A stretch of DNA of 64,000 bases, taken from assembly GCA_963708045.1 (NCBI GenBank), contig OY970181.1, positions 323,740 through 387,739 of the forward strand. The letters are read 5' to 3'. The translations under genes and the position numbers were made by a program. Below are positions 3,585 to 55,659 of the stretch, piece by piece. Source of the stretch: an uncultured bacterium (GTDB lineage Bacteria; Patescibacteriota; Patescibacteriia; CAIQCM01). How positions within the stretch are numbered: position 1 is the stretch's first letter; each line of letters starts with the position of its first letter. The notes under the pieces were generated by a model that saw only the letters and a list, made by a program, of their open reading frames with translations, was not told where the DNA came from and did not search any database.

Positions 3585-4961
3585 TCAGAGAATTACCGAA
3601 ATCGTCAGTACTTTGTTTTTTAGCGTCAACCGGCTTTTCAAGTTCGTAAGCAACTCTCGTTTTTCGGTAATCGTCCCCTCGGTCAGCAAATAAGTTGCAT
3701 AAGCTCTAAGGTCAAAATTTTCTTTGGTCTTTTTATCCTCGCATTTCCCCAACGCAATCTTTCTAAACTTTTCGTACCTCGAAATCTCGGCAGCAAATTT
3801 ATGTTTTACCCCAATCTCATTCAAATCAAGTGTGTCGACGAGCTTCGTTAGCTGGTCAATTATTTCCTCCTCGCGCACATATCCGCATTGGCAATTTTTA
3901 TCTTTTGCTTTGGTACAACCGTAGTAAACATAGCGATGTGTTCCACCAGCTTTTTGCTCTTTGAATTTCTCGCAGGCGGTTACGCCCGACCCGCACAATC
4001 CGCAAGTAATGAGCTTCGTAAACGCGAACTCGCGATTGTTTTTGTTAATCTCGCTTCGGACAAGTTGCGCTTTAACCTTTTCAAAAAGCTCCGGCGTAAT
4101 AAGCGGCGTATGTTTGCCGGCATACCATTTTCCACTTCCGCGCGGATGTTCAAACACGCCGTAGTAAAAGGGATTCTTTAAAATAAGGTAAATATTTCCC
4201 AGCGCCAACGGCTTTCCATACTTGGTTTTAAAGTTAATATCGTATCGCAACCATTGATACAGTTTCCGCCCCGACCATCCATCGTTTCCGACTTTCTCAA
4301 ACATCTGCCGAACAATTGGCGCACGCACTGGATCAATTATCGCCTCGCACGGTTTATCTTTTATCTTCTCGTTCAAATATCCAGTCGGCGAAACCGCCGG
4401 ACGCAACCCCTGCTCGCATCGCGCCCTCATACCCCGCTTAACATTTTCGCTCTTGTTGTCATTTTCAAGCTTCGCTTGTGAGCAAAGGATCATCAGCATG
4501 AATTTCTCGCTCGGCGAGTTGGCGAATTTCTGGTTGAAAGTTCGTATCTCGATCAAGAGTTTTTGATCCATCAAATCGACCAGCGCCCCAAGGTCACCAG
4601 CATTCCGCGAAAGCCTGTCTGGTGCCCAAGTGATTATCCCACCAAACTTGCCCGCTCTGATGTCCTTGAGGAGCTCATTAAAGACCGGACGCTGGCCAAC
4701 CGCCTTGGCTGAATGGTTTTCTTTTCGAATCTCGGTTACTAGTAACCCCTCGCGCTCGGCAATCGCCAACATTTCTTTAATTTGGCTATCAATGGAAAGC
4801 ACCTGCATTTCCTCACTTTCGGTCGACTTCCGAGCGTATAGGCAATATCGGGTTTTAGGCATTATGGCGGCGTTTCCTTGGTTTTTGTCGTTCATACGAC
4901 CAAGTAATGCCGCAACCCTGTTGTGGCGTCTAGGCGGGGCTGTAGGTAAGTCCACTTTCAA
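3585..4961 (-). CDS. large serine recombinase (resolvase/integrase family with recombinase domain and zinc ribbon)
   Basis: N-terminal resolvase catalytic domain (YARKSTESE with catalytic Ser, DRLSRN), central recombinase domain, Cys-rich zinc ribbon (CGLCGSG...YYGCTKAKDKNCQCGY), C-terminal coiled region; probable true start at the internal Met (MPKTRYCLYARKS, about 4862). Confidence 0.85.
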   Translation of the reverse strand: MKVDLPTAPPRRHNRVAALLGRMNDKNQGNAAIMPKTRYCLYARKSTESEEMQVLSIDSQIKEMLAIAEREGLLVTEIRKENHSAKAVGQRPVFNELLKDIRAGKFGGIITWAPDRLSRNAGDLGALVDLMDQKLLIEIRTFNQKFANSPSEKFMLMILCSQAKLENDNKSENVKRGMRARCEQGLRPAVSPTGYLNEKIKDKPCEAIIDPVRAPIVRQMFEKVGNDGWSGRKLYQWLRYDINFKTKYGKPLALGNIYLILKNPFYYGVFEHPRGSGKWYAGKHTPLITPELFEKVKAQLVRSEINKNNREFAFTKLITCGLCGSGVTACEKFKEQKAGGTHRYVYYGCTKAKDKNCQCGYVREEEIIDQLTKLVDTLDLNEIGVKHKFAAEISRYEKFRKIALGKCEDKKTKENFDLRAYATYLLTEGTITEKRELLTNLKSRLTLKNKVLTISVIL

Positions 4962-5039
4962 AAATTAGCCCATTGAGCTATTCTTTAAGCACAACTTAAT
5001 ATTGCCTAAACCGCGCCGATGGCGAGGCATGGCAGAAAT

Positions 5040-5083
5040 CCCATGACAGATACTGAACCCCGCGTTTAGCGTCCTGTCATGGG
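5040..5083. repeat. inverted repeat/hairpin cccatgacag...ctgtcatggg upstream of the recombinase gene
   Basis: Perfect 10-bp arms seen in sequence; candidate recombination site or promoter element. Confidence 0.4.
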
Positions 5084-5133
5084 TAATATTCCGAAAGGAA
5101 TATTTGGCCGCAAGGCCTAGCTAGCGCGGGGCT

Positions 5134-12176: not shown

Positions 12177-12318
12177 GCAAAGCGTTAGCTGTTAATAACA
12201 CCGTGTAAAAAATTTTTTAGATAATACAAAAAATTGTGTTAGAACGGCCTGACACATACCCCTTGAAAATTTGTCACATTTATCATAATCTCCACTTATG
12301 CCCGGGTGGCGTGCGCCC

Positions 12319-12344
12319 AAGGCGCATCCGCCTCAGGCGGAAAA
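12319..12344. repeat. hairpin motif aaGGCGCATCcgcctcaggcggAAAa (copy 1) upstream of tRNA-Leu
   Basis: Paired with the copy at 12494-12519 carrying compensatory substitutions. Confidence 0.5.
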
Positions 12345-12371
12345 TGGCAAACACATCCCGCTCATTCATAT

Positions 12372-12454
12372 GCCCAGGTGGCGGAACGGCATACGCACCA
12401 GCTTTAGGAGCTGGCACTCGCAAGAGTTTGAGGGTTCAAATCCCTCCCTGGGCA
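12372..12454 (+). tRNA. tRNA-Leu(TAG)
   Basis: GCCCAGGTGGCGGAACGGCATACGC ACCAGC-TTTAGGA-GCTGG (anticodon TAG), long variable arm, T-arm GGGTTCAAATCCC, acceptor closing CTGGGCA; 5' half nearly identical to the tRNA-Leu(TAA) at 494-576. Confidence 0.85.
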
Positions 12455-12493
12455 TATGAATGAAGGCGGGACGCCCGAAAGGGCTTGCGGGTT

Positions 12494-12519
12494 CTGCACC
12501 TGAGGCGCATCAGCCTCTG
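12494..12519. repeat. hairpin motif gaGGCGCATCagcctctggctgAAAg (copy 2) downstream of tRNA-Leu
   Basis: ccgcc/ggcgg in copy 1 becomes cagcc/ggctg here: C-to-A compensated by G-to-T, so the stem is preserved. Confidence 0.5.
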
Positions 12520-12528
12520 GCTGAAAGT

Positions 12529-12574
12529 CTCGCCTCGGGCATTTTAAAAACTCTGACCTGTGTCGGAGTTTTTA
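12529..12574 (+). terminator. 17-bp perfect-stem hairpin gggcattttaaaaactc...gagtttttaaaatgccc
   Basis: Seen directly; followed 18 nt later by a T-run; could be the tRNA terminator or a structured element. Confidence 0.45.
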
Positions 12575-13168: not shown

Positions 13169-14320
13169 GAATCCCTAATTTCAGCCATATTTTGATTATT
13201 ACCTTGGCTCTTGACGGATATTTTTGAATAGAGTATTATATCCACATTATCCACAGAGCCCGACATACTATGAGCAGTAACTTAACTCCTAATATGAAAG
13301 CCAGCGGCTAGCCGGATATTTTGTGTCCCAATGCCCGCTGGTTTGCCAGCGGTTTTCTTTTTAGAAAAATCAGTTCGGAAACTTTTTAGAGGGTGGCCCC
13401 TTACAAAAGATTCCGAAAACCTACTTCCGCGGAGGGCGGAAAGAGCAAGTCCGAATTTAGGAACGTTGACAACCAAGCAAAGAGTAATAAATGTAAGTAC
13501 GAATTTTGGTTTCCAAAAGAAATCAAAATTTCAGTTTTGTTAACGTACAAAACTGGAGCATCTAAAAATAACGTCAACGAATTTTTGTGGTTCTCGTCGC
13601 AATGGAGCAATCCAAAGCGACTACCGTCCTAGTATCAGACTGGGACGGATCCAGAATTCTCTGGAAGACATTAAGGGCGTACGGTGGATGCCTCGGCATG
13701 GAATGCCTATGAAGGACGTAGCAGCCTGCGATAAGTCACGGCGAGGTGGCAAGCAACCTTTGACCCGTGAATCTCCGAATGAGGAAACTCAATCCGATGG
13801 AAGATCGGATTATCTTGTGCTGAATATATAGGTACAAGAAGGGAACTCGGCGAAGTGAAACATCTCAGTAGCCGAAGGAAAAGAAAGAAAGGTGCAATTT
13901 TTATATCGCCTTTCGCGATTCACATGTCTTCGGATGTGTGTTCCGCGATCTGCGGTAAAAAGTTGTGCTCATTCCCCTAGTAGCGGCGAGCGAACGGGGA
14001 AGAGCTTAAACTCCAAAGTGTTAAGCATGAAAACGGGTGATATGTCGAAAGATGTGTTATCGCGTATCGTGTGGCGGTTGTAGGGCCTCATATACTATGG
14101 AGTGTTCAGACGTAAGCGTTGTTCGCCTGCATCGAACAAGCAAGGGTTACAAACGATATCTTCCCAAGCAGAACGGCCTGGAACGGCCGGCCATAGACGG
14201 TGACAGCCCGGTACGCGAATGGGGTTATCCCTTTGCAGTTTATGTTCTAGAGTAACACGGGACTCGTGAAATCCTGTGTGAAGTCGGGAGGACTTTCTCC
14301 CAAAGCTAAATACATTCCAC

Positions 14321-14360
<40 letters not shown>

Positions 14361-14980
14361 CAGCCCGGAAGGGCGATGAAAAGTATCTGAAACCGTATGC
14401 TTACAAGGAGTGAGAGTGGATAGCAATATCCATGATCGCGTTCCTATTGAAGAATGAGCCAACGAGTTTGCTGTATGTGGCAAAGTTTAAGCCCGAGAGG
14501 GCGTAGACGTAGTGAAAGCGAGCGTGAAAGCGCGTTCTCACTTATCAACTTTTGCGGTTTACCGCAGAAGTTGTTGAGTGAGTGAGTCGCATACACAAGA
14601 CCCGAAACCGGGTGATCTAGCCATGGCCAGGATGAAGTTTTACGAAAGTAAAATGGAAGTCCGAACACATAAGCTGTGCAACACTTTGTGATGAGCTGTG
14701 GCTGGCGGTGAAATTCCAATCGAACTCGGTAATAGCTGGTTCTCCCCGAAATAGCTTGAGGGCTAGCGTCGGTTAATAACTAATTGGTGGTAGAGCACTG
14801 AATGGGGAACGGTGGAGTGATCCTACGTTTCCCAACCAACCTCCGAATGCCAGTTAGTGTTCCCGACAGTCAGCACGTGGGGGCTAAGCTCCACGGTGCG
14901 CAACGGAAACAGCCGTTGATCTCCAACTAAGGACCTTAAATCTATGCTAAGTGGAAAAGGATGTGGAACGACTCAAACAA

Positions 14981-15011
<31 letters not shown>

Positions 15012-15818
15012 TAAAGAAAGCGTAACAGCTCACTGGTCGAGTTATTCTGCGCCGAAAATATACCGGGGCTAAGCATAGTTCCGAAGTTGAGGGTTCTATA
15101 ATTAACTTTATAGAGCGGTAGGGGAGTGTTTGAAACGCATTGAAGGCGAAGACGTGAGTCCCGCTGGAGTGTTTCGAAGTACGAATGTTGGCATGAGTAG
15201 CAAAAATTGATGTGAGAACCATCAACGCCGTAAGAGGAAGGTTTCCTGGGCAACGCAAATCGGCTCAGGGTGAGGCGATCCTAAGACGAGGCCGAAAGGC
15301 GTAGTCGATGGAAAAGCAGGTTAATATTCCTGCCCCTCAATGGGTCACTACCCAGACTGACGCATCAAAAATACACGGGCGCTCTTTGGTTATGCGCGTG
15401 TCTTAATTGGGCAACTGATTAGGACGCAGTCTGAACCGAAAGGGGAAGACAATCCGTGAATGTATGGTGCCCAGAAAACGTCTGGAGACTATCCTATTGA
15501 GTCCGTACCGTAAACCGACACAGGTCCTCGGGCACAAGTGTGCCAAGGCGGACGAGAGAAACATCGTTCAGGAACTAGGCAAAAAAGTGGCCGTAACTTC
15601 GGGATAAGGCCTGCCCTATCGCAAGATAGGGTCGCAGCGAGCGTCTATGAACCGACTGTTTATCAAAAACACAGGTCCCTGCTAAGTCGCAAGACGATGT
15701 ATAGGGGCTGATGCCTGGCCAGTGTCAGAACGTTAAGGGGAGATGTTGACTCCGCAAGGAGAAGGCATTGAACCGAAGCGCTGATGAACGCCGGCGGTAA
15801 CTATAACCGTCCTAAGGT

Positions 15819-16086
15819 GGACAACACTGCCTTAGTGAGGTAACAGACCTCCTTCGAACTTTGACTAGCCATTGTCAAAGAGGTAGAAGAAAATTTGGCT
15901 ATTTCGGTGAACCTCCTTGTTTAAAAACAAGGACAATACCGAGGCAACCTGCAATGTGCAGAGAGTCCGTAGAGACTACACGCCAAAGTTTAACAATTGG
16001 TTAAATAAGATATAGTCCGAACTGCTTAGTAATAAGCAGAGCGTGATTGAACACCACGCCATTACAAAGTGTAATGTAACAACAAG
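15819..16086 (+). ncRNA. group I intron in 23S rRNA (insertion after CCTAAGGT, E. coli position about 1917)
   Basis: Exon sequence CCTAAGGT | intron | AGCGTAATCCCTTGTCGGGTGAGTTCCGACC matches the uninterrupted 23S; 5' exon ends in T and intron ends in G; conserved group I core elements R (cagagagtccgtagagactacacgcc) and S (aagatatagtccgaac) are present; 268 nt, no ORF. Confidence 0.75.
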
Positions 16087-16369
16087 AGCGTAATCCCTTG
16101 TCGGGTGAGTTCCGACCCGCACGAATGGCATAACGAGTTCATAACTGTCTTGACGATGTACTCGGCGAAATTGCAAGTGGCGTGAAGATGCGCTGTACTC
16201 GCAGCTGGACGAAAAGACCCCGTGAAGCTTTACTACTCCTTGCCATTGGATCATGTTTACTTATGTTCAGCGTAGGTGGGAGCCGCAAGGCGCCAATGAG
16301 ACACCACCCTTATGTTGATATGATTCTTACTGCAAACCGTGAATCCGGTTAGCGGAACAGTGGCTGGAA

Positions 16370-16400
<31 letters not shown>

Positions 16401-16621
16401 CAGTAACGGAGGCGTTTACAAAGGTAGGCTTGGCTCGGATGGAAATCGAGCTCAAAGTGCAAACGCAGAAGCCTGCTTGACTGCGAGGGTGATGGCCCGA
16501 GCAGAGACGAAAGTCGAAGTTAGTGATCCGACGGTCCCTCAGAGGAGGGCCGAAGCTCAACAGACAAAAGCTACTCCGGGGATAACAGGCTGATCTTGCC
16601 CAAGAGTCCATATCGACGGCA

Positions 16622-16681
<60 letters not shown>

Positions 16682-16738
16682 TGGCTGTTCGCCAATTAAA
16701 GCGGTACGTGAGCTGGGTTCAGAACGTCGTGAGACAGT

Positions 16739-17114
16739 GAGAATACCCGCGCTGTCTAAAAATCAGATCCAAGTCGCAATTCACAAGATGCGAAAGGATT
16801 CCGGTGTTGTCGCAAGATAACACTGGAGCTAAATGCTGGAAAATCTGGTCCGATCTTCTTTGGAGAGAAGATCAAAGAACTCGCACTAGTCGCGCAAGCG
16901 ACTGACAACGTGACGAGCGCAGACAATCAGCAGGAAAGGTTCTTCCATTACACGTAGAACAATCAACAATGGAAAGAAAATCCTCAGAGACTACACGCCT
17001 GATAGCTAGAAACCCCTAGTGAAAGATATAGTCCGAACTCTATGGCGACATAGAGAGTGCATCAGAAATGATGCGCCGGTTCAAAATTTATTTTTTGAAT
17101 TCGCAACATAATTG
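16739..17114 (+). ncRNA. group I intron in 23S rRNA (insertion after GAGACAGT, E. coli position about 2593, the I-CreI-type site)
   Basis: Exon GTCGTGAGACAGT | intron | TCGGTCTCCTATCC; intron ends in G; R (cagagactacacgcc) and S (aagatatagtccgaac) elements shared with the first intron; 376 nt, no ORF. Confidence 0.75.
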
Positions 17115-17550
17115 TCGGTCTCCTATCCACTGCGAGCGTTGAAACTTGAAGGGATGCTTCCCTAGTACGAGAGGACCGGGAAGCACGAACCTCCCGTGTA
17201 CGTGTTGTCCTACCAAGGGCATGGCACGGTAGCGGAGTTCGGAGGCGATAAGCGCTGAAAGCATCTAAGCACGAAGCGCCCCCTAAGATTAGGTTTCGTT
17301 ATAGACTCCTCGGAGACGACGAGGTTGATAGGCAGTAGGTGTAAGGCCCGCAAGGGTTTGAGCCGAGCTGTACTAATCGGTCGAGTTCTCCAGGGAACTC
17401 TGGTAAAAAATCAGAGAACCACAAAAACGCGCTGAAGTTATTTCAGTTGCCGTACTTTACATTTAGTGAATATCGCGTCTTTTTTGATACGGTATTTGCG
17501 AACCAACGAGCGTAGCAGCGTCTTCGTTCTGTTATAAAATAAGTTCAGAG

Positions 17551-17670
17551 TCTTGGTGACCCAACCGCACTGGTCACACCCGTTCCCATCTCGAACACGG
17601 CAGTTAAGCAGTGCAGGGCTGATGATACTTGGGGCCAACCCGTCCCTGGGAAAGTAGGCCGTTGCCAAGA
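17551..17670 (+). rRNA. rrf: 5S rRNA
   Basis: TTGGTGACC...GGTCACACCCGTTCCCATCTCGAACACGGCAGTTAAGC...GGGAAAGTAGG...GCCAAGA; flanking processing stem aagttcagagtc/gaccctgaactt. Confidence 0.85.
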
Positions 17671-27749: not shown

Positions 27750-28115
27750 TTATTTATCGCAACCGCATTCACAGACGGCAGTACCGTGTGTGTGATTGCA
27801 TTCCGGGCATTTAGCGACAACGCAACCGCAATCGCAAACACCGTCGTGCGCGTGTCCGCACTTTTGACATTCGTTCATAGAAACACCTCCTTTTGTTTCC
27901 TTGCTGTCCTTAGTATATAACAATCCTTGGTTTTTGATAATTGAACTAAATTTAAAAAACAATAGGATTGAAGCGGAAATAATACCAATGAATATTCCTG
28001 AAAGAATGCCAATCGGCGCGGAATGGAATGAACTGTCAATAAATTTTCCAGCCAGCATGCCGCCGATTGTTAGAACAACGATAATGATTCCAACTTGGGT
28101 TGCTTCGTTTTTCAT
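27750..28115 (-). CDS. small 2-TM membrane protein with C-terminal Cys/His-rich metal-binding tail (or two genes: membrane protein plus 42-aa Cys/His-rich peptide)
   Basis: Single frame MKNEATQVGIIIVVLTIGG...KGGVS-MNECQKCGHAHDGVCDCGCVVAKCPECNHTHGTAVCECGCDK; a perfect AGGAGGTG RBS lies 5 nt before the internal ATG (27878); the tail is an internal duplication of a C-x2-C-x-H-x-H-...-C-[DE]-C-G-C unit. Confidence 0.5.
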   Translation of the reverse strand: MKNEATQVGIIIVVLTIGGMLAGKFIDSSFHSAPIGILSGIFIGIISASILLFFKFSSIIKNQGLLYTKDSKETKGGVSMNECQKCGHAHDGVCDCGCVVAKCPECNHTHGTAVCECGCDK

Positions 28116-28116
28116 A

Positions 28117-29013
28117 CTAGGAGGAATAAACCGTGACTGGTGTGCCAAGGTATGACCAGTCATAGATAAATTTGGCGTCGCCGATGCGCATATTAACGCA
28201 ACCGTGGCTCATTTCTTTTCCAAAATTGTTGTGCCAATAAGCCTCGTGCATATATTCGCCGCGTAGAGAAAAAAGAGTATTCCAATGCGTATTTTTATAA
28301 TCGTAGTTTGCGCCGATGTATTCCTTAATCGCCACCTTACGAAGGACGGAATAGTTTCCGGGTCTGGTTGGCATGGCTTTGGTGCCGGTTGAAACAAGAT
28401 AAGTGGCAACCAGCAAGCCGTTTTCAAAAGCATAAAGTCGCTGTTTTTTAAGATCAATTTCTATCGCCTTAAAAACCTCGGGTTTGTTGTTGGTGAATTT
28501 CGGCGCGGGGACGGAGAATTTGGTTTCGGTTGTGTCTATGGTTGCCGCTGTAAGCATTGACTTGACGCTCACTGGTCGTGGATACCAATCATTAAGAAGT
28601 TTTCCTTCGCCGTTAAAAACGCGGATGTAGTTGCCAAACTTGGGTCCGGTTGCCGCGGTAATTTCGTTAATACCGTCGCCGTTAACGTCGCCGATATTTA
28701 CGATTACGCCTTTGGCGATTGTTTTGTCAAAAGCGTTAAATTTATTAATAAGCGATCCGTTTTGCCGAAGAACGCGGATTTCTGGAAGTGAGCCTGGGCC
28801 CGCGCCAACAATAATCTCGGGAACGCCATCGGTGCCAAGGTCGCCGATGGCCAAAGTTGCGCCGTCGGTCCATTTATCAAAAATCGGCACAGTGATCGTC
28901 TTTGCGCCGGTTTTGGTGATGGTTAGGTTTGGTGCCGCGGTTGTGCCAGCGTTTGCTGGTTGGACAAAAGTCAAAAAACCAAGGCAAAAAACAATCGGGA
29001 GTACGTATTTCAT
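28117..29013 (-). CDS. L,D-transpeptidase (YkuD domain) with N-terminal FG-GAP/VCBS-like repeats
   Basis: Signal peptide; GDLGTDGVPEI and GDVNGDGINEI repeats; catalytic SHGCVNM motif near the C-terminus. Confidence 0.75.
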   Translation of the reverse strand: MKYVLPIVFCLGFLTFVQPANAGTTAAPNLTITKTGAKTITVPIFDKWTDGATLAIGDLGTDGVPEIIVGAGPGSLPEIRVLRQNGSLINKFNAFDKTIAKGVIVNIGDVNGDGINEITAATGPKFGNYIRVFNGEGKLLNDWYPRPVSVKSMLTAATIDTTETKFSVPAPKFTNNKPEVFKAIEIDLKKQRLYAFENGLLVATYLVSTGTKAMPTRPGNYSVLRKVAIKEYIGANYDYKNTHWNTLFSLRGEYMHEAYWHNNFGKEMSHGCVNMRIGDAKFIYDWSYLGTPVTVYSS

Positions 29014-29084
29014 ACAATATATTATACCGCCTTTTGCTCTTGAAATAAACTAATAAATATAGTAAATTTCTATTTACGTGGGCC

Positions 29085-29105
29085 TGTAGCTCAGTTGGTA
29101 TCCGC
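29085..29105 (+). other. 21-nt 5' fragment of tRNA-Ala (GGGCCTGTAGCTCAGTTGGTA) 23 nt upstream of the intact gene
   Basis: Exact copy of the first 21 nt of the tRNA at 29129. Confidence 0.7.
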
Positions 29106-29128
29106 CCAAAACATTTTGTACAATTTTC

Positions 29129-29201
29129 GGGCCTGTAGCTCAGTTGGTAGAGCACTGCCTTTGCAAGGCAGGGGTCAGCGGTTCGAGCCCGCTCAGGTCC
29201 A
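29129..29201 (+). tRNA. tRNA-Ala(TGC), no encoded CCA
   Basis: GGGCCTGTAGCTCAGTTGGTAGAGCA CTGCC-TTTGCAA-GGCAG (anticodon TGC) GGGTC AGCGG-TTCGAGC-CCGCT CAGGTCC A. Confidence 0.85.
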
Positions 29202-29247
29202 AAAATTGTACATAATTACTTAGACGAGCAGTCCGATGTCCATCGGA

Positions 29248-29280
29248 CGGGTCAGCGGTTCGAGCCCGCTCAGGTCCACC
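29248..29280 (+). other. 33-nt 3' fragment of tRNA-Ala (GGGTCAGCGGTTCGAGCCCGCTCAGGTCCACCA, with CCA) 46 nt downstream of the intact gene
   Basis: Exact copy of the variable-arm-to-3'-end of the tRNA plus CCA; preceded by hairpin agtccgatgtccatcggac. Confidence 0.7.
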
Positions 29281-29462
29281 AAAAAACAATCTCTTTTGAG
29301 GTTGTTTTTTTGTATATATTTCCTCCCCTTAAGTCCGATGTTTAATCGGACTCCGACCCCCTACATTATTGAAGAGATCAAAATGTCGGAGGTAAGGGGG
29401 GGCGAGGAGGGGTTATGTTATGCGCTATCCGAAATTATATATTTTTGCTAAGGTTTAACAAT

Positions 29463-29786
29463 ATGATTCGCAAATTGTTGCATTATCTCCCGCGAGTGTT
29501 AACCGTGCTTGCTGTCGCCTTTCTCTATATATTTGTGCTGGAAGCATTTTCGCCGGAATTTGGGTGGCAGTCGGGGTTAATGCATTTTGTTTTGGCCACA
29601 GTCGTTCTTCTCTTTGGAATTCTAGCCTGGAAAAAACCGCTTATCGGCGGTTGGTTTTTCTTGTTGCCGCTTATCGCCTCACTCTTTTTGGGAAGAGGCG
29701 GAATCAATTTTGTTTTCGTCGGATTTTTTGCTATTGGTTCTCTATATCTCTTTGAGGGGTATATGAAAAAAATTGGCAAAATTTAA
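29463..29786 (+). CDS. hypothetical membrane protein
   Basis: Three to four TM helices; start at MIRKLL. Confidence 0.4.
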   Translation: MIRKLLHYLPRVLTVLAVAFLYIFVLEAFSPEFGWQSGLMHFVLATVVLLFGILAWKKPLIGGWFFLLPLIASLFLGRGGINFVFVGFFAIGSLYLFEGYMKKIGKI

Positions 29787-29800
29787 TATTTACAATTTTT

Positions 29801-30460
29801 ATGATCACCCAAATTTACGAAATAGGAAATCCCGAAGAAGCTCGCGAGGCGGTTGCCGCTCACGTTGATAATATCGGCGTTTTGGTTGGCGACGGGGAAT
29901 TTCCAAATGAATTAAGTATTGAAAAAGCAAAAGCTGTTTTTAATGTTATACCGGCACATGTTAAAAAAGTCGCGCTGTCGCTTTCTGGTGATTTAGAAAA
30001 AATCGCGCAGATTTTAGACGGTCTTCGTCCGGACATTATTCATCTTGGAACTTTGCCAGAAAAATTCACACCCGATGATCTAAAAAAATTAAAACAGCGT
30101 TTTCCGGAAATAGAATTTATGAGGACGATCCCGGTTGTTGGTGAAGAAAGTGTTGCTTTGGCAAAACAATACGACGGCGTGGCTGATTATCTTTTACTTG
30201 ATAGTCATAGAAAAGATGATAACCAAGTTGGGGCAACTGGTTTAACTCACGACTGGGGTATAAGTAAGAAAATAGTTGAGTCCGTAAAGATACCTGTGAT
30301 TCTCGCCGGCGGTTTGGGACCAGAAAATATCGCCGAAGCAATTAGGCAGGTTCGTCCGTATGGTGTTGACTCCAAAACCAAAACCGACAAAATTGGCAGC
30401 AACGAAAAAGACATGGATAAAGTCAGCGAGTTTGTAAGAATCGCGAAAACAACAAAATAA
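29801..30460 (+). CDS. phosphoribosylanthranilate isomerase-like (TrpF family) TIM-barrel protein
   Basis: DYLLLDSH...GATGLTHDW and ILAGGLGPENIAEAIRQVRPYGVDS follow the TrpF C-terminal pattern (LLD...GG.G..FDW...ILAGGL.P.N...A....P.GVD.SSG); call is tentative. Confidence 0.5.
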   Translation: MITQIYEIGNPEEAREAVAAHVDNIGVLVGDGEFPNELSIEKAKAVFNVIPAHVKKVALSLSGDLEKIAQILDGLRPDIIHLGTLPEKFTPDDLKKLKQRFPEIEFMRTIPVVGEESVALAKQYDGVADYLLLDSHRKDDNQVGATGLTHDWGISKKIVESVKIPVILAGGLGPENIAEAIRQVRPYGVDSKTKTDKIGSNEKDMDKVSEFVRIAKTTK

Positions 30461-30577
30461 TATATTATTAGCTAATATGCCCCAATTTCAGATCAGGTTA
30501 CAAATAGCTAAAAATATATAGCGGCGGGGGAGTGTCGCCAGAGCTCATAAAATAATTCTCGCCGTTCGTCTACATCT

Positions 30578-54681: not shown

Positions 54682-55659
54682 ATGTTTCGTGAAATAATTG
54701 ATCAAAAAGAATGGAACGAATTGTATTCCCAGGCCATTTCGGCTTCGGGAAAATTTTTACAATCTTGGGAATGGGGCGAATTTCAAAAATCCTGCGACCG
54801 AAAAGTTTACCGACTCTCAAACGACGGCGCAATCGCTCAGATTATTGAATTGCCGTTGCCGTTTAATAAAAAATATTGGTTTTGTCCGAAAGGCCCTCTC
54901 ATGAACCATGAACCACGTACCATGAACAATACGTTTATTGATGAATTAAAAATATGCGCAAAAAAGGCGGGAGCGGTTTTTTTGTGTATTGAGCCAGCAG
55001 ACGTTATTGCTAGTGGAGGAAGTCAATCCCATGACAGAAGTCCAAGGGCGACAAGTATCGTTGATCTTACAAAATCCGAAGACGAGCTGCTTTCCGCAAT
55101 GCACCAAAAGACACGTTATAATATTAAAGTCGCCGCCAAGCACGGCGTCGTAGTTGGTTCATGGTCTCAGCCAAAGGCTGATCCGCCTCGGGCGGACATG
55201 GTTCATGGTTCATTTGATCACGTGTGGAATTTATTTTCAGAAACGGCGGCGCGCGATGGTTTTCACTTGCACCCGCGCGAATATTATGAAAGGCAGATTA
55301 AAATGCCGAACATTGAAGTGTTTATTGCCGAGTGTGAGGGAAAAATTCTAGCTGCGGCTGTTGTTATATTTTCTAACGGCGTTGCGACATATTTGCACGG
55401 TGCGTCGGCAGGCGAAATGCGTAATGTAATGGCGCCATACGCGCTGCATTGGGAAATTATAAAAAATGCCAAAGCGCGAGGTTCTATAAAATATGATCTT
55501 TGGGGAATTTCCGACGACCCCAAGTCTGGCTGGGCGGGGATCACTCGCTTTAAGCGCGGTTGGGGCGGGGTAGATTTTAGTGCACCCGGCACCTATGACT
55601 TGCCCGTAAGTCGTTTCTGGTATAGCGTTTACACGTTAGCACGCCGGTTGCGTTTTTAA
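54682..55659 (+). CDS. FemAB-family peptidoglycan-bridge peptidyltransferase carrying in-frame repeat insertions
   Basis: FemAB fold pattern (W..GWGGVDF..., KYDLWGI); ccatgaacc-type repeat at 54901-54930 and its inverse with an inner hairpin at 55156-55214. Confidence 0.65.
   Translation: MFREIIDQKEWNELYSQAISASGKFLQSWEWGEFQKSCDRKVYRLSNDGAIAQIIELPLPFNKKYWFCPKGPLMNHEPRTMNNTFIDELKICAKKAGAVFLCIEPADVIASGGSQSHDRSPRATSIVDLTKSEDELLSAMHQKTRYNIKVAAKHGVVVGSWSQPKADPPRADMVHGSFDHVWNLFSETAARDGFHLHPREYYERQIKMPNIEVFIAECEGKILAAAVVIFSNGVATYLHGASAGEMRNVMAPYALHWEIIKNAKARGSIKYDLWGISDDPKSGWAGITRFKRGWGGVDFSAPGTYDLPVSRFWYSVYTLARRLRF

Follow-up and report, generated by a model that had tools for sequence, protein, structure and literature searches.

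Bacterial tRNA genes have been described as uniform apart from group I and group II introns (2014 review, PMC4033280), and the disrupted tRNA genes of archaea comprise non-canonical bulge-helix-bulge (BHB) introns, including some at D-loop positions, and split or tri-split tRNAs with complementary GC-rich leaders; the archaeal intervening sequences are apparently able to move between tRNA genes (PMC4033280, PMC4390854). Here we analysed a stretch of 64,000 nucleotides (nt) from an uncultured Patescibacteriota bacterium (contig OY970181.1; referred to as the window, with coordinates counted from its first base), in which a complete tRNA-Ala(UGC) gene lies nested within the two halves of another tRNA-Ala gene. 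A further point of reference is offered by the intervening sequences of bacterial 23S rRNA, which are excised by RNase III and not religated.

Bases 29080-29281 of the forward strand form a single nested unit, a tRNA-Ala inside a tRNA-Ala shell that is split after nucleotide 21. The pieces of the shell were assigned by reading the sequence against the standard tRNA numbering. The 5' half (29080-29100; tRNA positions 1-21) consists of the acceptor strand GGGCCTG, TA, the D-stem strand GCTC and the D-loop AGTTGGTA, and is followed by a 125-nt insert between positions 21 and 22 that contains a 28-nt leader (tccgcccaaaacATTTTGTACAATTTTc; 29101-29128), the intact inner tRNA-Ala(UGC) (29129-29201) and a trailer (AAAATTGTACATAATtacttagac; 29202-29225), which pairs with the leader and whose first 15 nt are its inverted repeat. 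The shell then resumes, as read from the sequence, with the 3' strand of the D-stem, GAGC, and A26 (29226-29230), carries an 18-nt palindrome, GTCCGAT-GTCC-ATCGGAC, at the position of the anticodon arm (29231-29248; shell positions 27-43), and ends with the variable loop GGGTC, the T arm, CAGGTCC, A73 and CCA (29249-29281), so that its 3' half spans 29226-29281. The segment GGGCCTGTAGCTCAGTTGGTA is present in exactly two copies (29080-29100 and 29129-29149, 49 nt apart), as is the 30-mer GGGTCAGCGGTTCGAGCCCGCTCAGGTCCA (29172-29201 and 29249-29278, 77 nt apart), the second copy of which is directly followed by CCA at 29279-29281. No match to either repeat was obtained in any of 100 shuffles, confirming an earlier sequence-only reading of the locus in which an intact tRNA-Ala was seen between its own 5' and 3' partial copies. 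That reading was also right on the 21-nt length of the 5' fragment and on the TTGTACA motif in both spacers, whereas the unit starts at 29080 rather than 29085 and ends at 29281, and the spacers measure 28 nt (29101-29128) and 47 nt (29202-29248) instead of 23 and 46 nt. The 3' fragment had been traced from the variable arm to the CCA end; this repeat is there, but the homology reaches further upstream, to GAGCA at 29226. As GAGCA represents the 3' strand of the D-stem plus nucleotide 26, the 3' piece starts at position 22 and meets the 5' piece, and the two fragments thus complement each other as the halves (positions 1-21 and 22-76) of one gene that is split at a single point around a complete cognate tRNA gene. 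Repeated integration and excision, or the remnant of an attachment (att) site, as had been suggested, does not describe such an arrangement.

The inner copy is, as judged from its sequence, the working tRNA-Ala(UGC). It was called by ARAGORN, scored well above the Rfam RF00005 gathering threshold (70.3 versus 29 bits) and carries G3:U70 and A73, with no CCA encoded. The shell retains G3:U70, A73 and CCA, and the replacement of its anticodon arm by the palindrome leaves it unable to decode. None of 195 junction variants of the joined shell was called as a tRNA by ARAGORN, and an Rfam search over 28000-30500 at E = 10 returned the inner tRNA only, apart from weak RNAI and tmRNA matches that we regard as noise. 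The presence of CCA on the 3' copy alone had been noted correctly, and it mirrors a mixture within the clade, where CCA is encoded in the tRNA-Ala genes of L133 and L006 and not in those of L126, L130, L135 and L138. The tRNA genes of the window itself likewise include some that encode CCA and some that do not, which implies that a CCA-adding enzyme must exist.

Orthologous loci were obtained via homologues of EndoQ and YkuD, for a comparison that the sequence-only reading had proposed as a check. At the syntenic site, six genomes carry a plain, uninterrupted tRNA-Ala(UGC) (L126, L130, L133, L135, L138/L139 and L141/L142), among them the nearest relatives according to YkuD (L130) and EndoQ (L126). 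L122, also syntenic with the window, has a nested, window-like design, and L006 is fragmented, with two units of 5' half plus leader preceding a full tRNA; in two further EndoQ homologue loci (L127, L129) synteny was lost and no tRNA-Ala was obtained. The uninterrupted relatives bear out the earlier view that DNA was inserted into a tRNA gene. Conservation of the fragments in distant relatives, which had been named as the sign of a structured RNA rather than an integration scar, was not found as vertical conservation: the arrangement is shared by L122 and L006 only, and the closest relatives have plain genes.

In the L122 nest, the shell begins with a 5' half, GGGCCGT...GGTA, followed by the leader cccgcccaaaacgttgtgaaaaatttaa, an inner tRNA-Ala(UGC) that reads GGGCCCA...TGGGTCCA without CCA, and a 28-nt trailer that pairs along the whole leader (25 bp, −30.6 kcal/mol). 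Downstream follow, in this order, an extra empty helix, GAGC-G, the palindrome GTCCGAT-GGCC-ATCGGAC and AGGTC, and the shell ends with a T arm bearing a 30-nt loop insert, ACGGTCC, A, CCA and a terminator. The acceptor stem of the shell (GGGCCGT/ACGGTCC) corresponds in type to the plain genes of L126, L130 and L141, and that of the inner tRNA (GGGCCCA/TGGGTCC) to those of L133 and L138. L006 is otherwise nearest to the plain L126 (about 85%), and both of its flanks have orthologous counterparts in the plain relatives; yet a 73-nt stretch comprising the shell 5' half, the leader and inner nucleotides 1-21 is 98.6% identical between L006 and L122, against approximately 72% in the flanks. Together, the patchy occurrence of the nested state and the shared 73-nt module suggest that the module was moved or copied between genomes. 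A stretch downstream of the L006 tRNA (GGGTTCGAGCC) was considered as a remnant of the shell T arm and rejected, as it is also found downstream of the plain tRNAs in L133 and L135. L125 (7939-8073) has a 49-nt initial piece of a tRNA-Ala-like gene with the palindrome (GAGC-G, GTCCGAC-GGGC-GTCGGAC, AGGTC-A) and, 16 nt further on, a complete tRNA-Ala(GGC) with CCA, an arrangement that may be a nest that lost its 3' shell half.

Leader and trailer of the window cassette are inverted repeats (ATTTTGTACAATTTT and AAAATTGTACATAAT) predicted to form a 14-bp duplex of −10.7 kcal/mol, and an equally good duplex was found in 17 of 300 shuffles. The window leader is identical to that shared by L122 and L006 at 21 of 28 positions, and across the 14 pairs common to the window and L122 we counted four compensatory changes and no one-sided change, indicating that the closing helix is under constraint. 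Such upkeep by compensatory substitution is the mark of an rRNA-type intervening sequence. In the minimum-energy fold of 29080-29280 (z = −5.7), outer segments pair with outer and inner with inner, and 29080-29100 pairs with 29271-29277. Once joined, the shell halves give a cloverleaf fold in which the acceptor, D and T stems are intact, the 29226-29230 strand closes the D stem with 29089-29092 and a 7-bp stem with a tetraloop takes the place of the anticodon arm. Strong leader-trailer helices were also considered as a general trait of Patescibacteria precursor tRNAs, a notion rejected because the median z was about −0.1 for the 81 tRNAs in the sampled Patescibacteria loci, among which strong helices are essentially limited to nested cassettes.

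A second nest was found in the same window, at a tRNA-Leu(UAG) gene (12300-12541, forward strand; fold z = −8.2). Its shell is composed of the 5' strand (12300-12311), the remainder of the D-loop (12342-12355), the variable arm (12472-12486), the T arm (12487-12533) and the acceptor 3' strand with A73 (12534-12541), without CCA. The cassette (12356-12471) stands precisely where the shell would have its 17-nt anticodon arm and contains a leader (tcccgctcattcatat), the inner tRNA-Leu(UAG) (12372-12454; called by ARAGORN, Rfam 57.4 bits) and a trailer (tatgaatgaaggcggga), with a GC-clamped leader-trailer duplex of −21.2 kcal/mol (z = −5.6). Two copies of a 30-nt double-hairpin module interrupt this shell, one in the D-loop (12312-12341; TGCGCCCAAGGCGCA TCCGCCTCAGGCGGA) and one in the T-loop (12495-12524; after TTC, between positions 56 and 57), and the latter has a counterpart of near-identical sequence at the same T-loop site in the Ala shell of L122. 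In the relative L143, tRNA-Leu(UAG) is plain, and its D-loop (AAATGGCAAACACA) and variable arm (CGCCCGTAAGGGCTT) match the window shell and not the inner gene, which suggests that the shell is the old resident and the inner gene a divergent newcomer with the same anticodon.

To place both nests in a wider context, species-representative genomes were scanned for a tRNA D-arm 5' part followed by a second one within 20-50 nt. The scan yielded at least 119 loci in two groups, simple tandem partial duplications in many phyla and nests in Patescibacteria, where dozens of loci have the nested design among the matches listed. These nests share the order 5' half, C-rich leader (often CCTGCCCGCC), full tRNA, G-rich trailer (GGCAGGCGGG) and 3' remainder, with the insertion located either in the D-loop, following GGTA, or in the anticodon loop, and in many of them the closing helix is GC-clamped. 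Cassettes related to these, with CCTGCCCGCC...GGCAGGCGGG ends, appear repeatedly in different lineages. Multi-level nests are present in L052, L012, L006 and L003, L052 having three levels of tRNA-Ala(CGC). In all ten nests where both could be read, the inner anticodon equals that of the shell, a count biased by the fact that shell halves were detected through their similarity to the inner tRNA; such agreement is predicted if the insert makes up for a host gene that is dead. Elsewhere, removal of the insert would turn the shell into a valid tRNA in about half of the nests, and shells range from intact to truncated or decayed (L035, L062, L109), as expected of relics. Of the features of a MITE-like, non-autonomous transposon bounded by terminal inverted repeats, the window cassette has the inverted repeats, but no target-site duplication is seen at 29100/29226 and no second copy of the leader motif stands out in the window. 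The GC-clamp motif CCTGCCCGCC occurs there at chance level only, which makes the window cassette at best a diverged member of the Patescibacteria group. Separately, three unrelated loci (L017, L092, L104) share the junction GGTA|AGCAWAGCTTGGCCAAC directly after a tRNA 5' fragment, which suggests another insert family using the same D-loop site. Loci from gut Clostridia and Bacteroidales (L010, L015, L038, L096, L119) have a conserved 26-nt 5' fragment of tRNA-Ala(CGC) and a 40-nt spacer upstream of an intact gene and no 3' shell half; a similar pattern for tRNA-Phe(GAA) was seen in many Clostridia loci.

We consider it probable that a cognate tRNA cassette invaded the resident tRNA-Ala gene, leaving the shell as a non-decoding relic while the inner gene supplies the function. 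A self-contained tRNA-Ala(UGC) cassette with pairing leader and trailer would have entered the D-loop between nucleotides 21 and 22, and the anticodon arm of the shell would later have given way to a small palindrome whose type also occurs at other places in the clade. Entry could have been brought about by an enzyme or by recombination; our best guess is horizontal spread with the shell halves as homology arms, and homologous recombination through them would account for the matching anticodons as well as for the identity between L006 and L122. A sigma-70-like promoter (TTGAAA, 17 nt, TAAATT; 29040-29068), with a predicted start 4-5 nt before G1 of the shell, and an intrinsic terminator with a 13-pair stem and a T run (29281-29310), which closes the predicted transcription unit, bracket the nested unit on the forward strand. 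L130 and L141 share the conserved block CTTGAAATAAAC..TAAATATAGTAAAT.TC..TTACG, which in these two genomes drives a plain tRNA-Ala. The whole 230-nt unit would accordingly be made as one transcript, from which RNase P and a 3' processing nuclease may cut out the inner tRNA, its end being completed by the CCA-adding enzyme. The closing helix would extend the inner acceptor stem and shield the inner fold from shell halves of near-identical sequence; because these halves would otherwise compete for the acceptor strands, the helix would be maintained by compensatory change. Invasion rather than local decay is favoured by the different acceptor lineages of inner gene and shell in L122 and by the 98.6% identity of the L006/L122 module amid flanks of about 72%.

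Several points weigh against this reading. The closing helix would likewise be expected if the host RNA needed to stay folded. From the window to L122, the palindrome differs less than the leader (17/18 versus 21/28 identical), which could hint at a function of the shell, as could the retention of its CCA and of intact acceptor and T stems. The shell halves of the window are 100% identical to the inner tRNA, so that in-situ duplication with gene conversion is possible at this locus. There is no nearby enzyme gene, target-site duplication or copy-number signal that would point to a mechanism of mobility, the count of matching anticodons carries the bias mentioned above, and the processing steps of the inner tRNA are ones that we infer.

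An alternative explanation, which we regard as unlikely, is that the shell is functional. After release of the inner tRNA, its two paired pieces would form an anticodon-less tRNA-Ala-like RNA that could be charged by alanyl-tRNA synthetase (AlaRS) and could not be used by the ribosome, possibly serving as an alanine donor for a FemAB-type transferase. The pieces would be held together by the acceptor stem, the D stem and the leader-trailer helix, and the cloverleaf of the joined shell, its G3:U70, A73 and CCA, the promoter 4-5 nt ahead of shell G1 and the terminator right after CCA would all suit such an RNA. The same applies to the conservation of the palindrome (17/18 against 21/28 for the leader), to the compensatory change in its stem in L125 and to positions 26 and 44 on either side of it, which follow the local tRNA in each genome. 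A FemAB-family protein is encoded in the genome, by a gene at 54682-55659 (Pfam 2.3e-40) directly upstream of tRNA-Arg(CCG), and cell-wall genes adjoin the locus, namely YkuD in the window and Mur ligase and BacA in relatives. Fem transferases have been studied with acylated RNA helices as donors (PMC2655667), which we count in favour of this explanation. Opposed to it is the fact that six relatives, including the nearest ones, L130 and L126, have a plain tRNA-Ala and no shell, that a 30-nt insert disrupts the T-loop in the L122 shell and that the Leu shell, of the same design, lacks CCA, while shells elsewhere are visibly decaying. The palindrome arms also occur at non-tRNA sites, so their self-complementarity need not reflect a function in RNA.

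We consider it similarly improbable that the nest arose locally without any mobile cassette, by tandem or partial duplication of tRNA-Ala followed by deletions and gene conversion. The identity of the window shell halves to the inner tRNA is in line with this scenario, as are slippage-like tandem arrays of 5' fragment plus spacer at L009, L026, L099, L104 and L116. It would, however, require two independent deletions that end at the same 21|22 point in two copies, and it explains neither the leader-trailer helix with its compensatory changes, nor the distinct inner and shell lineages in L122 and in the tRNA-Leu of the window, nor the 98.6% module amid 72% flanks.

The fragments are very unlikely to be att-site scars of a site-specific integrase whose element has since been lost, which was the origin favoured by the sequence-only reading. 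Fragments of tRNA genes left by integrating elements are common in prokaryotes (van der Gulik et al. 2023, PMC9897764), repeated arrays of 3' fragments exist at other loci (e.g., L027) and L135 has a serine recombinase gene approximately 1.6 kb from its tRNA-Ala; but integration would repeat the same end of a tRNA gene on both sides, usually the 3' part, and would not yield two complementary halves that meet at one point in the D-loop, the recombinase-bearing locus L135 itself has a plain tRNA, and we found no element DNA, no integrase among the neighbouring genes and, within the 64 kb, no further copy of the 3' fragment that could mark the far end of an element.

Hardly more credible is an intervening sequence acting at the RNA level, whose removal would leave the shell to work as a spliced or two-piece tRNA, in the manner of archaeal non-canonical introns or split tRNAs or of 23S rRNA intervening sequences. 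It would account for a closing helix at the junction and for insertions into the D-loop, anticodon loop and T-loop, it is compatible with the nests elsewhere whose shell is valid after removal of the insert, and leader and trailer recall the GC-rich, complementary split tRNA halves of Nanoarchaeum; nevertheless, neither shell of the window has an anticodon loop, so that they could not decode even if spliced, inner and shell anticodons are equal wherever they can be read, and we know of no tRNA splicing endonuclease in bacteria. A group I intron was not found in 28000-30500 even at E = 10 (Intron_gpI), the group I introns of the window being located in 23S rRNA. Identity of the unit with transfer-messenger RNA (tmRNA) was rejected, as ARAGORN found none and beta_tmRNA reached 12.2 bits against a gathering score of 84.

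Returning to invasion by a cognate cassette as the preferred explanation, its extension to the whole group is more tentative. Patescibacteria may harbour a selfish or horizontally spreading element, a tRNA gene with a closing helix, that has repeatedly entered loops of the cognate resident gene, killed it and taken over its role, building up multi-level nests, and in some lineages the shells might then have been co-opted as anticodon-less, alanine-accepting two-piece RNAs for tasks outside the ribosome, for instance in Fem-type cell-wall synthesis; we put the chances of this broader picture at somewhat less than even.

The palindrome at the anticodon-arm position has counterparts inside and outside tRNA sequences. 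Replacement of the arm by such a palindrome was also seen in the L122 shell and in the L125 fragment (GTCCGAC-GGGC-GTCGGAC). The hairpin in the 3' spacer had been reported to have a twin at 29326-29348; the twin is real, reading GTCCGAT-GTTTA-ATCGGAC, and is located at 29333-29351 (forward strand), where it interrupts the loop of a C-rich/G-rich hairpin whose L130 equivalent lacks this insertion. A further copy (GTCCGATCTCGATCGGAC) is intergenic in L131/L132, and no palindrome-bearing shell was found in the viral contigs scanned. We also considered whether the palindrome might be a true anticodon arm with an 8-nt loop (AUGUCCAU), which was rejected because the arms GTCCGAT/ATCGGAC recur at non-tRNA sites. 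The C-rich/G-rich palindromic hairpins (cctcccctta...taaggggagg, then ggaggggttaYgtt) occur at 29312-29420 in the window and at 4830-4950 on the minus strand in L130, that is, downstream of the nested unit in the former and upstream of the plain tRNA-Ala in the latter, and are absent from L141. They behave like repetitive extragenic palindromic (REP) sequences, with the GTCCGAT palindrome sitting in one of their loops. The 30-nt double-hairpin module was found at 12312-12341, 12495-12524 and 55167-55196 of the window and at 10657-10686 of L122, with the pattern TGCGCC-N3-GGCGCA plus TCNGCC-N3-GGCNGA or with the hairpin order swapped; its third window copy lies in frame inside the FemAB-family gene, a family of aminoacyl-tRNA-dependent peptidoglycan transferases, and is bordered by the repeated GGTTCATGG. 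To judge from these sites, the module looks like a tiny mobile palindromic element that prefers GGTTC-like sequences.

The genes next to the tRNA-Ala nest encode YkuD, DUF7670, PRAI, NUDIX and hydrolase proteins. Proteins encoded in the neighbourhood also assign the window to Patescibacteria. A Mur-ligase-family gene with M and C domains lies between the YkuD gene and tRNA-Ala in L126, L122, L006, L133, L135 and L138, and is missing from the window (29013-29080), L130 and L141. The Leu nest is situated approximately 1.1 kb upstream of the 23S rRNA gene (13661-17395), which contains two group I introns (15809-16039 and 16729-17055); a 5S rRNA gene (17552-17670) and a LOOT RNA (5003-5118) were also located.

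No description of a bacterial tRNA nested in another tRNA was found in the literature searched, the coverage of which was partial. The nests would add a new form of disruption to the known bacterial tRNA genes, a complete, helix-closed cognate tRNA inside a resident gene. Because tRNA finders report only the inner gene, shells go unseen or may be miscalled. The nests show a possible route for horizontal replacement of single-copy tRNA genes in very small genomes, bear on the long debate over the origin of split and intron-containing tRNA genes, and provide a concrete processing substrate for organisms that cannot be grown alone. Should the shells prove functional, they would constitute a new class of non-decoding tRNA-like RNA.

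Compared with known systems, the nests share with the fragments left by integrating elements (van der Gulik et al. 2023, PMC9897764) the partial copies beside an intact tRNA that form the footprint of an insertion, and both are ignored or miscalled by annotation tools. Unlike those fragments, the pieces in the window are complementary halves, the insert is a cognate tRNA with a helix, and there is neither an integrase nor an element body. With its alanine identity, its missing anticodon, its CCA end and possibly its two paired pieces, the shell resembles the tRNA-like domain of tmRNA, including two-piece tmRNA (PMC3985003), but it has no mRNA-like domain and no tag reading frame. The disrupted tRNA genes of archaea likewise show interruption in a loop, a helix-closed insert and GC-rich complementary sequences beside the halves (PMC4033280, PMC4390854). 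They differ in that the present host is bacterial, that the insert is a full tRNA of the same anticodon and that the window shells have no anticodon, so that splicing would restore no decoder; exons that give a functional tRNA after excision, as in the archaeal type, were found in about half of the nests of other lineages and not in the window. The 23S rRNA intervening sequences resemble the nests in the insertion into a loop, in a closing helix kept by compensatory change and in their patchy distribution among close relatives, yet there the host remains functional in pieces, while here the host tRNA appears to be dead and the insert is its replacement. Overall, the nests work somewhat like archaeal disrupted tRNAs and 23S intervening sequences and are a member of neither.

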